NCBI RefSeq assembly: GCF_012927455.1
Contig: NZ_JABBPE010000003.1
Span: forward strand, 18,970 to 82,969
Source: Polaromonas sp.
Lineage (GTDB): Bacteria > Pseudomonadota > Gammaproteobacteria > Burkholderiales > Burkholderiaceae_C
Length of the DNA: 64,000 nucleotides
Direction: 5' to 3'
Position 1 is the stretch's first letter, and each line of letters begins with the position of its first letter. Positions 1,756 to 6,999 of the stretch are shown here, piece after piece. The notes beneath the pieces were generated by a model. It did not search any database, was not told the DNA's origin, and saw only the letters and a list, made by a program, of their open reading frames with translations. Position numbers and translations under genes: made by a program.

Positions 1756-2424
1756 TCAAATCAGGCCGAACCAGCAAGCGCGCTGCACCGCCGCCAGCTT
1801 GTTGTCGACCTTGAGCTTGGTCATGGCATTGGCCAGGTGAAAGTTGACGGTGCGCTCGCTGCAGAGCAACAACTCGCCGCTTTTGCGCGCCGTCGTGCCC
1901 TGAAAAGCCAGCTTCAGGCATTCGAGTTCGCGCGGACTCAAGGGGCTGCGGGCCTCTGCCAACGCCCGCTTGAGCAGCGGCCAGATGTTGAGCGCGGACC
2001 AGGCCAGCGCCGCCGCCTCGCTGCGGTCGTGCCACTGGCGCGGGCTGAAAAGATAGCACTCGAAAGCGCGCCCAACCGTCAACGGAAACGCGATTCGGAC
2101 GACGCTCTGGTAGCCATGACCGAGCCAGAGCCTGCGCCAGCGACTGAGATTTTCGAAAGCCGACTTGGATATATCCTGCCAGGCCACCAGCGGCGCATCG
2201 GAATCGCGCCAGAGCGCGCCAAAATCCCGGCTCTCGGCTAGCGCCTGGGCGGCTTCAAGCAGGCGCGGCGGATGCAGGGCCAGCACCAGTCGGTCCTCAT
2301 CACCGGCGAAAGGGTCAGGGCCCAGCACCATCAGGGCTTCGACCGAAAACTCATGCAGGGCGCACATCCAGTCGCTGATGACGCCGTCCAGGCTGACACT
2401 GTCAAAATTAGCAGGTAGCTGCAT
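1756..2424 (-). CDS. LuxR-family regulator with a degenerate autoinducer-binding domain (LuxR solo)
   Basis: C-terminal LuxR HTH (LSPRELECLK...SERTVNFHLANAMTKLKVDNKLAAVQRA). N-terminal ~160 aa has autoinducer-domain-like remnants (HPP, PLVAW, HGY). No luxI in the window. Confidence 0.8.
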   Translation of the reverse strand: MQLPANFDSVSLDGVISDWMCALHEFSVEALMVLGPDPFAGDEDRLVLALHPPRLLEAAQALAESRDFGALWRDSDAPLVAWQDISKSAFENLSRWRRLWLGHGYQSVVRIAFPLTVGRAFECYLFSPRQWHDRSEAAALAWSALNIWPLLKRALAEARSPLSPRELECLKLAFQGTTARKSGELLLCSERTVNFHLANAMTKLKVDNKLAAVQRACWFGLI

Positions 2425-2514
2425 TAGCTCGGCCGCAGGAGAACAAGGACAATGCAGCCAAATGTCAAATACGTCATCAGTGAGGATTCAGCTTGTGCTT
2501 GAGAGGTTTTTAAA

Positions 2515-3816
2515 GTGAGGGTGGTTGACGTCTACGCACGGCTTGCGCAGCGTCCCTGGTTTCAGTGGCTGCGCGAGGAGTTGGTCGTGCCGCCGTTGGA
2601 GCCTATTTTGCATCCATCGCCCCGGCGCCTTTGGTGGCTGGGGCTGATGATGCTTTTGGGCAATGCCTTGTTTGCCTGGATCTGGTCGGTCTGGCTGCCG
2701 CAACCCTACGAAAACCTGACGCTGCGGGTTATCGCCAGCCTGCTGGGCTTCAGCCTGATGGCGCCGCAAGTGAGCCTGCACCCCGACAGCGCGCTGGTGC
2801 AGAAAATTTTTGGTCTCCTGTTCTGGCTGGAGTTACCGGTCTTCTTCAGCTGGATGTACCTGTGCAACAGCGGCAGCGCCGTCTGGCTGGCGACGCTGGC
2901 GGTCATGGTGCTGGTTTACTACCATGTCACCGACTGGCGCTTCGCCACCCTGGGCATCATCACGGGCAGCCTGCTGGCTTGGGTGCTGTTTCGCTTCTTG
3001 GGACCGGGCGTCCCACCGATCGCGGAAAACCAGCGCATCGTCCATGCCGTGGTGTTTGCATTTGCGTGGACCTGCGCCCTCGTGCTCAGCCTGTCGTCGG
3101 CCACTTTGCGGCGGACACAACTGGCGCACGCGCTGACGACCATGGGCATCATGGCGCATGAACTGCGAACGCCGTTGTCTACGGCGGCGCTGATTGGTGA
3201 CGCGATTGAACTGGAAGTCGAGCGCCAACCGGACAATCCACGCTCGCCGCAGCTGGAAAAGCTGGCTTCGCGCCTGCACGCGCTGGCGCGCAACATGAAC
3301 CACCAGATCGACACGCAGATCGCCAATGCCAAACTGATGCAGCTGCCGAGCCACGCCGAGCGGATTTTTGCTGCCGAGCTGGTGCAGCAGGTGGTGGCGT
3401 CCTATCCCTTCGCCGCCAGCCGCCAGCGTGACTGCGTGCGGGTGCTGATCCACCGTGACTTTACCTTCCTCTCGTCATTCACCCAGTTTTCCCAGGTGCT
3501 CGACAACCTGATGAAAAATGCACTGTATTCGCTAATGGCAGCTGACTCCAGGTACCATCCGGGCGCGCTGCGCATCGAAGTCGGCATGCTGCACCAGCGT
3601 GGCCGCATCGTCGTGAGCGACGACGGCATGGGCATTGATGCTGCGCTGCTGCCGCATATTTTCAAACCGTTCTTCTCCAGCAACCACGGCACCGGCCACG
3701 GCCTGGGCCTGGCTTTTTGCCAGCAAGTGGTGCGCAGCGCGAGCGGCAGCATTTCCGTGAAATCACAATTCGCCGTTGGCGCCACGTTCACGATTGAGTT
3801 GCCGCTGGCGGGCTGA
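2515..3816 (+). CDS. CqsS/LqsS-like membrane sensor histidine kinase (no receiver domain)
   Basis: About six hydrophobic helices including LPVFFSWMYLCN; H-box MAHELRTPL; N-box DNLMKNA; G1 DDGMGI; F-box FKPFFS; G2 GHGLGL. Adjacent to the CqsA-like synthase. Confidence 0.85.
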   Translation: MRVVDVYARLAQRPWFQWLREELVVPPLEPILHPSPRRLWWLGLMMLLGNALFAWIWSVWLPQPYENLTLRVIASLLGFSLMAPQVSLHPDSALVQKIFGLLFWLELPVFFSWMYLCNSGSAVWLATLAVMVLVYYHVTDWRFATLGIITGSLLAWVLFRFLGPGVPPIAENQRIVHAVVFAFAWTCALVLSLSSATLRRTQLAHALTTMGIMAHELRTPLSTAALIGDAIELEVERQPDNPRSPQLEKLASRLHALARNMNHQIDTQIANAKLMQLPSHAERIFAAELVQQVVASYPFAASRQRDCVRVLIHRDFTFLSSFTQFSQVLDNLMKNALYSLMAADSRYHPGALRIEVGMLHQRGRIVVSDDGMGIDAALLPHIFKPFFSSNHGTGHGLGLAFCQQVVRSASGSISVKSQFAVGATFTIELPLAG

Positions 3817-3862: not shown

Positions 3863-4864
3863 ATGACTCCGACCCCCTTATCCTTTGCCCTGTACCGCCG
3901 CCCGGGCGGCGTGATTTTTCTCGATGACGATAGAGACTACCTTGAGATGCTGGCCGAAGTCATGCCGCCCGACTGGTACGTTCGCATGTTCCTGCGTCCC
4001 GTGGCCTGCATTGAGCAGTTGCTGAAGGAGACCCTACAGTGGGAGGCAGACGCCTGGGCACAGCAGGAAATCATCAATCGCTGGCGCGAGGGGGTCTCAC
4101 TGATTCCGCAGATCCTGCAGTACTGGCGTGACGACGGCATAGCGCGTTTTGCGCTCTCCCGGGTCTGCGTGGTGGACTACGCCATGCCGGCGATGAGCGG
4201 GCTGCGGGTCTTGAGCGAACTCACGGGCTGGTCCGGTTCGCGTATTTTGCTGACGGGCCGGGCCGATGAGCAACTCGCGGTATCGGCTTTCAATCGCGGT
4301 CTGATCGACCAGTTCATTGCCAAGCAGTCGCCCGGGATTCGCCTGCGCCTGACCGAGGCCATCCAGGGCCTGCGCCACATTCCAGACACACGCCATCAAC
4401 AGATCTGGCGCGCCACCTTGTCGCGCGCGCAGCATGCGCTGCTGTGTGAACCAGCGATTTCAAAAGCGCTGGAAAAGTTGACGCTGCAGCAGGGCTGGAT
4501 AGAGCGGGTGGTGATAGGCGCACCGTTCGGCATATTGGCGCTGCACCCGCAAGGTGGCGCAAGCTGGCTGCAACTGGAGCCCTCCGAAAACCTGCAGGAG
4601 CTCGCTGAAATGGCCGAATCCCAAGGCTTCGACGCGACCACAGTGGGGGACATCCGCGCCGGCAGACGACTCGTGGACCTGGAACTGCAGCTGGCCCTGG
4701 GTGGCGGCCAAAAACCCCGGCCGCAGCAGGCCTTTGCCATCGCCAGCGAGCCGGCGCGCCTGTACGCCGCCATCTTTGCGGTCCCGGAAAGCTTCAGCTC
4801 CGGTGAGGCGTCCAGTTACGCGCGTTTTATCACCACCGTGGGCGATCGTGAACTGCAGGACTAG
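3863..4864 (+). CDS. LqsR-like response regulator (split receiver, non-HTH output domain)
   Basis: VIFLDDD at the N-terminus, a long insertion, phospho-acceptor VVDYAMP at D105 (LqsR uses D108), ILLTG and FIAK. No recognisable DNA-binding domain. Confidence 0.8.
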   Translation: MTPTPLSFALYRRPGGVIFLDDDRDYLEMLAEVMPPDWYVRMFLRPVACIEQLLKETLQWEADAWAQQEIINRWREGVSLIPQILQYWRDDGIARFALSRVCVVDYAMPAMSGLRVLSELTGWSGSRILLTGRADEQLAVSAFNRGLIDQFIAKQSPGIRLRLTEAIQGLRHIPDTRHQQIWRATLSRAQHALLCEPAISKALEKLTLQQGWIERVVIGAPFGILALHPQGGASWLQLEPSENLQELAEMAESQGFDATTVGDIRAGRRLVDLELQLALGGGQKPRPQQAFAIASEPARLYAAIFAVPESFSSGEASSYARFITTVGDRELQD

Positions 4865-4873
4865 ACACCGGGA

Positions 4874-6139
4874 CTAAGAGGAAGCCTGAGCAGCGCGGGC
4901 ACGCCGTGCGATCGGCCAATCCCAAGGTTTGACGAGGGGCGCAATCTCGCGCGCCACCGCCTCTACGTGGTCCAGTTCCGAATCCATCAGGCCGGCGTTC
5001 AACGTGAGCCGCATCATCGCGCGCTTGCTGCTGGTGGCCGGCGCGCAAAACATGGCCGAAAACACGTCGCGCTCCTCCAGTCGGTCACGCAGCACCATGG
5101 TGTCGCATTCCATGCCAACTTCAAGCGCGATGATTTGCTGGCTTCCCTGGTGAATCGGGTAACCCAGATCACTCAGGCTGGCGCGCAGGCGCGTAGTGTG
5201 CGCCAGCAGGCGGCTGCGTGCCTCATCACTTTGGCGAATCACTTCCAGCGTGGCCGTCAGCCCGGCAATTTCGTGCGGCAGCAAGCTGGAGCTGAAAATA
5301 TTGGGAAAGCTGGTACAAAAAATGTAGTGCCGCATGTGCGCCGGTGCCGTGAAGAAACCGGCGCGCCCGGCAAAGGCTTTGGCCAGGCTGGCGGTGATGA
5401 AGTGCACCCGCTCCGACAAACCGAGCGCGGCGCACAGGCCGGCGCCCTGAGGGCCGTGGGTGCCCAGCGAGTGCGATTCATCGACCAGGATCATGCAGCC
5501 GTACTGTTCAGCGACCTCAACGACTTCCACCAGCGGGCAGAGCGCGCCTGTCGTGCTGTAGACGGAATCCACCACCACCAGGCCAGGTCCGGTCCTGGCA
5601 ATCATGCGCGCCAGGTGGGCCGGGTCGTTGTGCCGAAACGCACAGGCCGGCGCCCGTGCCGCATGGGCGCCCTCCCAGAGGGACGCATGCGCCAGCGAAT
5701 CCAGATAGACCGGTGTTTGCGCATCGGCAATGGCCTGCAGCAAACCCACATTGGCGGCATAGCCTGACTGGCAGATGAAGCCATCGTCTTTGCCAACCCA
5801 ATTGGCCAGGGCCAACTCCAGCGCACGGGCTGGATGCTGGTTGAGGTGAAACACGCCGGACTGGACCACAAACTCCTGCTGCTTGCGCAGCGCATCGACC
5901 TGGGCCTGGACGATGAGCGGGTGCCCCGTTAAGCCCAGGTAGTCATTGCCGTCCAGCCGTATTGCATTGGAGCCGGGCGGTTTGCCGTGCAGGACAAATT
6001 TTCCGCCCCACTGCTGATTCCAGCGCGGTGTGAAGTCGCGTGCGATGCGCTGGGTCAGCTGCGTTCCAAGGGAAGGGTTGCCCAAAGGGCGGGCGGCAGG
6101 GGCGAGTTTGCGTTCGAGTGCTTGCATGAAGAGTTCCAA
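4874..6139 (-). CDS. cqsA: Alpha-hydroxyketone autoinducer synthase (CqsA/LqsA/JqsA family, PLP-dependent AONS fold)
   Basis: GNDYLGL, VVDSVYSTTG, VDESHSLGTHG, PLP-lysine region ITASLAKAFAGRAG, IFSSSLLPHE. Clustered with CqsS/LqsR-like genes; no biotin genes nearby. Confidence 0.88.
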   Translation of the reverse strand: MELFMQALERKLAPAARPLGNPSLGTQLTQRIARDFTPRWNQQWGGKFVLHGKPPGSNAIRLDGNDYLGLTGHPLIVQAQVDALRKQQEFVVQSGVFHLNQHPARALELALANWVGKDDGFICQSGYAANVGLLQAIADAQTPVYLDSLAHASLWEGAHAARAPACAFRHNDPAHLARMIARTGPGLVVVDSVYSTTGALCPLVEVVEVAEQYGCMILVDESHSLGTHGPQGAGLCAALGLSERVHFITASLAKAFAGRAGFFTAPAHMRHYIFCTSFPNIFSSSLLPHEIAGLTATLEVIRQSDEARSRLLAHTTRLRASLSDLGYPIHQGSQQIIALEVGMECDTMVLRDRLEERDVFSAMFCAPATSSKRAMMRLTLNAGLMDSELDHVEAVAREIAPLVKPWDWPIARRARAAQASS

Positions 6140-6184
6140 TAGAAATGAACTCTCATTGAAAACTGTTACACAAATTGATACGTC

Positions 6185-6213
6185 TTACCCCCTGTTAGAA
6201 CTGTCAGGGGTAA
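6185..6213. promoter_or_regulatory. Lux-box-like inverted repeat upstream of cqsA
   Basis: TTACCCCCTG-TTAGAACTGT-CAGGGGTAA. The core CCTG-N10-CAGG (6191-6208) has the same geometry as the lux box ACCTGTAGGATCGTACAGGT. Centre lies 60 nt upstream of the cqsA start, in an AT-rich intergenic region. Confidence 0.55.
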
Positions 6214-6336
6214 AACGCTATCGCCATGAATTATCCAATTAGACTAGAACTATATAACTCATTACTAAATATTTTTGTAGTTATTTTTATTTACTCTAAC
6301 TGGTCTCAAAAAGTAACTTGTTGCAATACCGCACAC

Positions 6337-6789
6337 CTAACTCTGTTGCCATGGCAGCCCACGAAAGCGCCAGCCTCCCAGATGACCGCGCTGCCCCTGC
6401 GCGTCAGCATCTCCTTCGAAGCCTTCCAGAATGTTGTAGGCCTCTATCCCGAGTTCAGTGGCTCGTTGAGCAGCAGCGATAGAGCGGACCCCGCTGCGGC
6501 ACAACAGCACGACTTTCTTGCCCGGCGGCACGGCGGCTTTCAGGCATTCGTCAAAGCTGGGGTTGACCTCCATGCCAGGCCACTGCTTCCAGGCCAGCGC
6601 CACCGCGCCGGGCACATAACCGACCCAGGCGCGCTCGGCGTCGCTGCGCACATCCACCAACACTGCCTGGGCCGACTGCAGCCATGCAAAGGCCAGCTGC
6701 GGCAGAATGTCACCGGCGTAGCCCGGCGCCGGCTGTTTCTGCTGTCCCTGGAGCGGAGTAGGAGAGTCCGGTGGGGTGCTGATGCTCAT
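6337..6789 (-). CDS. Single-domain rhodanese-like protein
   Basis: LVDVRSDAE, active-site loop LLCRSGVRS, YNILEGFEG...GGWRFRGLPW. Start moved to MSIST (6789); ORF track begins at 6984. Confidence 0.88.
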   Translation of the reverse strand: MSISTPPDSPTPLQGQQKQPAPGYAGDILPQLAFAWLQSAQAVLVDVRSDAERAWVGYVPGAVALAWKQWPGMEVNPSFDECLKAAVPPGKKVVLLCRSGVRSIAAAQRATELGIEAYNILEGFEGDADAQGQRGHLGGWRFRGLPWQQS

Positions 6790-6999
6790 CTGGGAACCTG
6801 TCGTATTGAAAGTTGAATCATCTCCATGTTGCGCCGTCAGGCGTGCGTTGGGCAGTAGGCGACCATGGTGAAACTGAAAGTATTTTCCAGCGATCCACCA
6901 CTGCATGGCAAGTTGAGGAGGCAACTTTTGCAGTGCGCGTTCGATGGCAGGCAAAATCAAGCGAAGCGCAAACACAGCAAGCAACTACCGGAGACTCTA

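Follow-up and report, generated by a model that had tools for sequence, protein, structure and literature searches.

We analysed a 64,000-nucleotide stretch of a Polaromonas sp. genome (contig NZ_JABBPE010000003.1, positions 18,970 to 82,969; hereafter the window), in which a palindrome, box 1, lies upstream of cqsA, a gene for a CqsA/LqsA-type alpha-hydroxyketone autoinducer synthase. Comparison with orthologous loci points to a lux-box-like operator that is deeply conserved and travels with an atypical LuxR-type regulator, and thus to a hybrid quorum-sensing (QS) circuit. Judged from these comparisons, box 1 is probably the operator through which the neighbouring LuxR-type regulator acts on cqsA.

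The scan covered 80 loci with CqsA orthologues of 67–89% identity, one genome per species, from Polaromonas, Hydrogenophaga, Ramlibacter, Variovorax and related metagenome-assembled genomes, and 13-kb neighbourhoods were compared. A site was taken as a box when it matched at least 12 of the 14 positions of CCTGTCA-N4-TGACAGG. Upstream sequence of at least 150 nt was available for 75 of the orthologous cqsA loci, and 72 of these have such a match at the same position, so that the conservation in orthologous promoters proposed as a check in the original prediction was indeed observed. In nearly all of the 80 loci CCTG-N10-CAGG occurs 62–110 nt ahead of the cqsA start. The consensus, CC-CCTGTCA-N4-TGACAGG-GG, is a perfect 9+9 dyad with a 4-nt spacer. 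Its core positions are invariant or nearly so among 73 distinct promoter sequences (alignment A3, in which C14, T15, G16, C27, A28 and G29 never vary), and the neighbouring intergenic DNA is not conserved. The CCTG-N10-CAGG frame by which the palindrome had originally been recognized as a lux box, and with it CT-N12-AG within an 18–20 bp dyad, is a constant of all 73 promoters. Dyad length, frame and a conserved position in the promoter of a synthase gene are all those of a lux-type box.

Over about 1 Mb of locus DNA, matches at 12 or more positions were mainly box 1 and a second copy, box 2, described below; elsewhere they were almost absent, being limited to a palindrome within the rhodanese gene (9 loci) and a site within cqsA (2 loci). 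Taken by itself, the window has the frame about as often as chance predicts (CCTG-N10-CAGG, two observed against 1.86 expected; CCCTG-N10-CAGGG with at most one mismatch, three against 3.7). The significance of the box thus comes from the comparison of orthologues and not from its rarity, and the 72 of 75 promoters rule out a chance palindrome even though the frame itself is common.

The lux, las-rhl and tra boxes (V. fischeri luxI, P. aeruginosa lasB and rhlA, A. tumefaciens traI) have the same 18–20 bp CT-N12-AG dyad, likewise lie ahead of an autoinducer synthase gene and likewise have a partner with a QS-type LuxR helix-turn-helix (HTH). Among these, the lasB OP1 box, ACCTGCCAGTTCTGGCAGGT, closely resembles the orthologue consensus, CCTGTCAGTTCTGACAGG, which also has CCTGT...ACAGG in common with the V. 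fischeri lux box. CT-N12-AG is the most conserved feature of lux-type boxes (PMC4074388).

In the window, direct reading of the plus strand confirmed the palindrome CCCTGTTAGAACTGTCAGGG at the place originally assigned to it. In the cqsA direction it reads CCCTGACAGTTCTAACAGGG and matches the family consensus at 12 of 14 positions; 7 of the 10 pairs of the 20-mer are symmetric. It is the most degenerate copy of its genus, with an A at core position 5 that is unique among the 73 sequences, and we read it as a weakened version of the site. Box 1 is located in an AT-rich gap of about 200 bp between two minus-strand genes, cqsA and a rhodanese-domain gene, and the AT-richness claimed for 6140–6340 is real (GC 0.28–0.42, against about 0.62 in the flanks). 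Two details of the original description had to be amended. The outer TTACCC/GGGTAA arms exist, as TTACCCC/GGGGTAA, but they are one base out of register with the CCTG/CAGG axis, since the left arm has five C and the right arm four G. The distance of 60 nt to cqsA is correct from the box centre (6199.5) to the TTG at 6139, which opens the longest cqsA open reading frame (ORF) but is not a conserved start. Measured to the ATG at 6127, the start common to all orthologues, the distance is 72.5 nt, the corresponding values in the orthologues being mostly 72–82 nt within the range given above.

Box 1 was also found to keep company with luxR. It is present in 67 of the 69 loci with an intact neighbouring luxR gene. 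In Polaromonas sp. OV174 (locus L011; L011:9500-9800 and L011:5740-6003) luxR is cleanly deleted, leaving a promoter remnant followed directly by coaX; there the cqsA box is lost too, the best match being 8/14, and the TTCAAT downstream of it has become TTTAAT. This strain is a natural variant without luxR and without the box, and a ready strain for comparison.

Box 2 (CCTGYYAAYTTTGACAGY) overlaps codons 4–9 of luxR (P-A-N-F-D-S), 100 nt upstream of the kinase ORF, and faces the divergent operon of the kinase and LqsR-like regulator genes. Its synonymous sites are frozen: Pro4 is CCT in 62/62 sequences, Phe7 is TTT in 63/63 and Asp8 is GAC in 63/63, whereas the other conserved Pro, Phe and Asp codons of luxR vary freely and prefer GC-ending codons, CCT and TTT being rare. 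The segment shows no RNA fold (z -0.37), and frozen synonymous sites without RNA folding indicate that the constraint acts on the DNA. A second copy in luxR also indicates autoregulation, which upholds that part of the luxI-style positive feedback claimed at the outset; as to the sign, a positive effect is the reading we favour.

It is extremely improbable, in our judgement, that the box serves some other transcription factor encoded elsewhere and that its linkage to luxR is coincidental synteny. The comparison covers 13-kb neighbourhoods only, and two loci have luxR without a good box, both of which leave room for such a factor. However, motifs of this class are specific to LuxR proteins of the QS type, and QscR and RhlR have the HTHs nearest to that of the neighbouring regulator; the second copy is inside luxR itself; box and luxR were lost together in L011; and the association of box and regulator persists at about 38% regulator identity.

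The luxR-family gene is 3.7 kb from box 1 and encodes the sole protein with a DNA-binding domain in the conserved module. The C-terminal part is a GerE/LuxR HTH (PF00196, E 1e-14), the best sequence matches of which among solved structures are QscR and RhlR, with the common recognition helix RTV.FH..NAM.KL. In the AlphaFold model (pLDDT 87.5, pTM 0.82) a five-stranded alpha/beta/alpha N-terminal domain precedes the HTH, an arrangement that corresponds to the two-domain fold of QS LuxR proteins, an alpha/beta/alpha sensory domain plus a four-helix HTH. The top 33 Foldseek matches were full-length QscR, TraR, RhlR, SdiA, LasR and CviR, at probability 1.0 with TM values of only 0.30–0.51; the N-terminal domain alone also resembled GAF domains. 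GerE was the only Pfam match in the window regulator and 40 relatives scanned, and hhalign against LasR aligned only residues 130–222. An exhaustive search with residues 1–150 recovered 83 clusters among 1.84 billion representatives, which makes the N-terminal domain a small separate family on a QS-LuxR scaffold. Residues that contact the N-acyl-homoserine lactone (AHL) in TraR include W57, Y61 and D70. The invariant residues of the present family (G35, P36, P52, W96, G104, E122, W148 and P149) do not form the canonical AHL-contact pattern, as far as an unreliable alignment of the N-terminal domain allows the comparison.

The spacing between the boxes and what follows them is rigid. An invariant TTTCAATGG lies 30–31 nt from the box 1 core in all lineages (31 nt in the window), and an ACAAT lies at an offset of 32–33 from box 2 in 60 of 73 loci, so that nCAAT follows both boxes at a fixed 31–33 nt. 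The TTTTCAATG element, of which TCAAT forms part, is a predicted core promoter or transcription-start element of the cqsA gene. With the A of TCAAT as +1, the box would be centred at about -42.5; with TTCAAT as a -10 element, at about -51.5. The lux box of V. fischeri luxI is classically centred at -42.5. We give about an even chance to regulation being activation from a box centred near -42.5 of a start in TCAAT, a reading favoured by the rigid spacing over deep divergence and by the change of TTCAAT to TTTAAT alongside regulator loss in L011. The ATG in TCAATG was considered as an alternative start or upstream ORF and ruled out: it lies 29–31 nt from the cqsA ATG in a frame that varies, and some loci have TCAATA instead. 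By eye, no upstream element fitting a sigma-E or sigma-54 reading of TCAAT was found.

The same protein on the same operator could instead act as a repressor or roadblock, either in the manner of EsaR or by blocking transcripts from the AT-rich region or the rhodanese gene, with cqsA de-repressed when the regulator is inactivated; we think this unlikely, though worth keeping in view. A lux box that overlaps a promoter has been proposed to repress (PMC4074388), box 2 inside the luxR coding region is at a classic position for autorepression, and a -10-like ATAGTT is conserved about 40–45 nt upstream of the box in many Polaromonas loci. In addition, the hairpin in the cqsA leader begins 1–2 nt past TCAAT, so that transcripts start at or upstream of TCAAT, and some metatranscriptome contigs cross the box. 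These contigs (ice, root and river samples) are assembled sequences without 5' ends, and DNA carry-over is possible. On the other hand, the fixed distance from box to TCAAT in all lineages better suits an activator docked beside RNA polymerase, the change to TTTAAT that came with the loss of luxR and box in L011 is what would be expected as compensation for a lost activator, and a sigma-70-like promoter was not detected upstream. Activation thus remains the reading we prefer for the sign of control. As a separate observation, the ATAGTT/TATAGT-like element, at 6255–6262 of the window on the minus strand, could be the -10 of a second promoter upstream of the box.

A different kind of explanation is that the palindrome is mainly a nucleic-acid hairpin. 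It could form an RNA stem-loop if the cqsA leader is long, act as an insulator or resemble a terminator behind the upstream gene, or extrude as a cruciform in the DNA. Several features of the flanks agree with it. Past the 22-bp core they are complementary, with a sequence that differs by locus (columns 10–33 of A3 are CG in 21 sequences and AU in 19), and their covariation score of 0.181 exceeds the shuffled value of 0.127 ± 0.010, with 0 of 500 shuffles reaching it and slid controls at 0.106 or below. If transcribed, the arms in the window would form a 13-bp stem with an RNA fold of -20 kcal/mol (z -5.3). The core behaves otherwise. Its 14 positions are invariant in sequence and not merely pair-preserving, whereas the leader hairpin nearby covaries freely; its half-sites decay separately, leaving C-A and A-A mismatches in the window, L059 and L065; and the same motif is conserved at synonymous sites of luxR, where it does not fold. 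A pure hairpin is unlikely because box 2 has the same core without folding. There is no U-tract, terminator call or Rfam family match (only a sub-threshold CRISPR-repeat match, E 0.32), and the box tracks cqsA while the upstream gene differs between lineages. The terminator search called no intrinsic terminator on either strand and there is no T-run after the box stem; a terminator of the upstream rhodanese gene was ruled out on these grounds. Template switching, moreover, can homogenise the flanks of long palindromes. We therefore hold a predominantly hairpin function to be very improbable. With its invariant sequence and independently decaying half-sites, the core has the character of a protein-binding site. 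The flanks have that of a stem, or of a long palindrome made uniform through template switching, and may play an added structural role.

Several results count against box 1 being the operator of this regulator. The covariation of the flanks resembles that of a hairpin stem and is unexplained by a protein site alone. The copy in the window carries two core mismatches, one of them at an otherwise invariant position. Two loci have luxR without a good box (L068, 10/14; L069, 7/14, with a regulator only 46% identical), and co-loss of box and luxR was seen at a single locus, L011. Promoter prediction found no good sigma-70 promoter in the region upstream of cqsA, and a box centred at -51.5, as it would be with TTCAAT as the -10 element, is atypical. 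Finally, Autoind_bind (PF03472) had no match in the window protein, in 30 close relatives (E ≤ 10) or in 10 distant relatives (E ≤ 0.1). With an N-terminal domain that has no detectable Autoind_bind homology, the protein is not a canonical QS receptor; the original designation as a LuxR solo, in the canonical sense, does not hold, and likeness to TraR, QscR and RhlR is confined to the predicted fold. Set against these results are the conservation of the core in nearly all orthologous promoters and its association with luxR, and we retain the operator reading as the probable one.

Box 1 belongs to a four-gene module, the order of which is kept across the orthologous Comamonadaceae loci: cqsA, kinase and LqsR-like regulator genes convergent with it, and luxR divergent from the kinase gene (Table 1). 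The product of cqsA scores 559.9 bits against the NCBIfam equivalog NF005526 ('alpha-hydroxyketone-type quorum-sensing autoinducer synthase'), above the cutoff of 428. Its closest structures in the Protein Data Bank (PDB) are the CAI-1 synthase CqsA (3hqt and 2wk8, E 8e-96 to about 1e-95), with BioF at about 1e-41. By these matches it is a bona fide CqsA/LqsA-type synthase, as had been claimed for the gene beside the box. For the LqsR-like protein the best PDB match was 6sy9 ('Response regulator', E 7e-16, residues 14–262), which we take to be Legionella LqsR; no DNA-binding domain was detected in it by the domain scan. The kinase may be assigned as LqsS/CqsS-like by its position in the module. 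A synthase gene grouped with genes for a membrane sensor kinase and an LqsR-like response regulator is the composition of an Lqs/Cqs-type cluster.

Table 1. Positions of the predicted sites and genes in the window.
Feature	Position	Strand	Basis
LuxR-family regulator, 222 aa, GerE HTH and compact GAF-like N-terminal domain	1756–2424	-	Domain scan, AlphaFold
Box 2, predicted second operator copy; plus strand ACTGTCAAAATTAGCAGG, luxR direction CCTGCTAATTTTGACAGT	2398–2415		Motif match and frozen codons
ACAAT within GGACAATG, counterpart of the box 1 TCAAT	2449–2453	+	33 nt past box 2, kinase side
Membrane sensor histidine kinase, hydrophobic N-terminal half, no receiver domain	2515–3816	+	Domain scan
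LqsR-like response regulator, 333 aa, receiver domain	3863–4864	+	Domain scan, PDB match
CqsA/LqsA-type alpha-hydroxyketone autoinducer synthase, ATG at 6127	4874–6127	-	NF005526 and PDB matches
cqsA leader hairpin (GAGAGTTC...GGAACTCTTC)	6128–6153	-	Covarying stem in nearly all loci
Invariant TTTTCAATG element (TCAAT at 6159–6155)	6154–6162	-	Fixed spacing in all lineages
Extended arms around box 1, CGTCTTACCCC / GGGGTAAAACG	6181–6217		Arms 6181–6191 and 6207–6217, 91% complementary
Box 1, predicted lux-type operator; core 18-mer 6191–6208	6190–6209		Conserved core in orthologous promoters
Rhodanese-domain gene, upstream of cqsA	6337–6984	-	Domain scan

The cqsA leader contains a hairpin of its own, the outermost pairs of which covary and so place the RNA start at or upstream of TCAAT. 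The Shine-Dalgarno GGA(A/G) is part of its 3' arm, which extends as far as the ATG. The stems show compensating changes between loci (GGGGGTTCC/GGAGCTCCC, AAGTTTGTT/AACAAACTT, GGTGTTAC/GTAACACC and GTGACGC/GTGTCAC), and throughout L001–L080, L082 and L090 the Shine-Dalgarno GGAG or GGAA is paired with an upstream TTCC or CTCC. This suggests translational control of the synthase by sequestration of the ribosome-binding site, possibly dependent on temperature or on a factor. The luxR-kinase intergenic region (2425–2470 in the window) has a conserved TATTGTCC...GTTC in most loci, which is GAAC...GGACAATA in the kinase direction, with a TTGACA nearby in many Polaromonas loci.

At their 5' ends, the rhodanese gene on the minus strand and the divergent PPK2 gene on the plus strand share 120 nt (6865–6984) when each is taken as its longest ORF. 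Both true starts are probably further in, since orthologue alignments begin at residues 60–85 of the rhodanese and 40–90 of PPK2. In related Polaromonas loci the rhodanese coding sequence holds the las-box-like palindrome mentioned above (12/14, typically CCTGCCAGTGGTGGCAGG, with minor variants in L037 and L040), at L017:5442, L028:4013, L031:3831, L036:3968, L037:3966, L040:3954, L051:3960 and L075:3909; it is probably a coding coincidence. Metatranscriptome assemblies from ice, root and river contained cqsA sequences 95–99% identical to 4874–6119 of the window or to orthologous loci (L056:5000-10400). These matches are consistent with expression in situ, although they could also reflect DNA carry-over, and the module is widespread in Polaromonas of glacier, river and root habitats.

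Distant loci, gathered by exact-protein contig look-ups, extend the comparison to lineages in which LuxR is only about 38–43% identical, and there too the arrangement of box and TCAAT persists. L082 and L083, with a regulator 38% identical, have CCTGACA-AGGT-TGTCAGG followed after 31 nt by TCAAT, all ahead of the true cqsA start; cytochrome P450 and hydrolase genes on the same strand precede cqsA, and regulator, kinase and luxR genes follow. A diverged box, CCCGTAA-N3-TTACAGG, is found in L090 (regulator identity about 40%), again with 31 nt to TCAAT, a hairpin and the module. As annotated, the cqsA ORF of L082 has about 50 codons too many and overlaps with P450 sequence; its true start is near 3331, downstream of the box. 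The alpha/beta-hydrolase and cytochrome P450 genes that precede the cqsA-like gene there (L082:1065-4609) hint at a modified alpha-hydroxyketone signal.

The regulator family is always linked to the pair of kinase and LqsR-like genes, with or without cqsA. Three loci have the kinase, LqsR-like regulator and LuxR genes and no cqsA: L085:509-3743, on a plasmid-like contig by IS605/TnpB genes; L087:4557-7684, in a conjugative element; and L089:1073-4134, beside a rhodanese gene. No recognisable box was found in these three. The triad appears to be mobile, and triads without cqsA may be 'listeners' to the signal. That the triad is invariant even in the absence of cqsA suggests that the LuxR-type factor acts downstream of, or together with, the phosphorelay.

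We can now outline how the circuit would operate. A dimer of the regulator would bind the 18–22 bp dyad upstream of cqsA, and also the second copy, which overlaps the opening codons of luxR across from the kinase/regulator operon. How strongly the synthase gene, and probably also the sensor genes and luxR, are transcribed would in this way depend on the activity of the regulator, closing an autoregulatory loop. As input, the regulator could bind the CqsA product directly through its GAF-like domain, or it could be controlled by the LqsS/LqsR-like phosphorelay. Persistence of the kinase-regulator-LuxR triad without cqsA favours the phosphorelay, or both inputs together, and the regulator may act downstream of the phosphorelay rather than as an independent ligand receptor.

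The module combines features of systems that are otherwise separate. Compared with LuxI-LuxR pairs and their boxes, the synthase here is a pyridoxal phosphate (PLP)-dependent enzyme of CqsA/LqsA type and not LuxI, the regulator senses through a domain other than Autoind_bind, the module also has a sensor kinase and an LqsR-like regulator, a second box lies within the coding sequence of the regulator, and the palindrome has extended, covarying flanks. Non-AHL LuxR solos such as Photorhabdus PluR and PauR, and the OryR/XccR group that binds plant signals, are likewise two-domain regulators with a diverged ligand-binding domain, no luxI partner and a non-AHL signal pathway. They differ from the present regulator in that they retain an Autoind_bind match and are not known to have a two-component system as partner.

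Genes for a CqsA-type synthase, an LqsR-like regulator and a membrane kinase likewise form clusters in Legionella (lqsA-lqsR-(hdeD)-lqsS), Vibrio (cqsA-cqsS) and Janthinobacterium (jqsA-jqsS-jqsR); for none of these is a LuxR-family gene or lux-type box described in the literature compared, and in Vibrio the signal runs instead through LuxU/LuxO/Qrr. Janthinobacterium offers a precedent for autoregulation of the synthase gene in the palindromic 'JAI-1 motif', TTGA-N6/7-TCAA, upstream of jqsA, to which no binding protein has been assigned (PMC5080296). Box 1 differs from it in sequence, and an identity of the two was ruled out. The Polaromonas clusters have already been named as lqs homologues, without mention of a LuxR-family partner (PMC3376566). 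A search of the literature, subscription journals lying outside it, did not find a LuxR-family gene or lux box tied to cqsA/lqsA clusters in Comamonadaceae.

Alpha-hydroxyketone quorum sensing is known from Vibrio, Legionella and Janthinobacterium, with CAI-1, LAI-1 and JAI-1 as signals. Outside Vibrio the route from signal to promoter is not well understood, since no DNA-binding domain has been recognised in LqsR-type regulators. We tentatively propose, as a possibility somewhat short of even, that in these betaproteobacteria the LuxR-type protein provides the DNA-binding output so far missing from Lqs/Cqs-type signalling: kinase, LqsR-like protein and a LuxR-fold protein with a new GAF-like sensory domain would form a 'three-component' unit, switched by the LqsR-like protein or the alpha-hydroxyketone, that drives cqsA and the sensor operon from lux-type boxes. 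The comparison supplies a conserved DNA-binding candidate, the sequence of its predicted operator, two candidate promoters as targets and a variant in which function was lost naturally, which makes the question directly testable in culturable Polaromonas, Hydrogenophaga and Ramlibacter. A small new sensory-domain family, joined to a QS-type HTH, is defined by it as well. If the proposal is true, it would represent an evolutionary graft of a LuxR/lux-box output onto a non-AHL, kinase-sensed signal, and would extend the LuxR/lux-box paradigm to a non-LuxI synthase.

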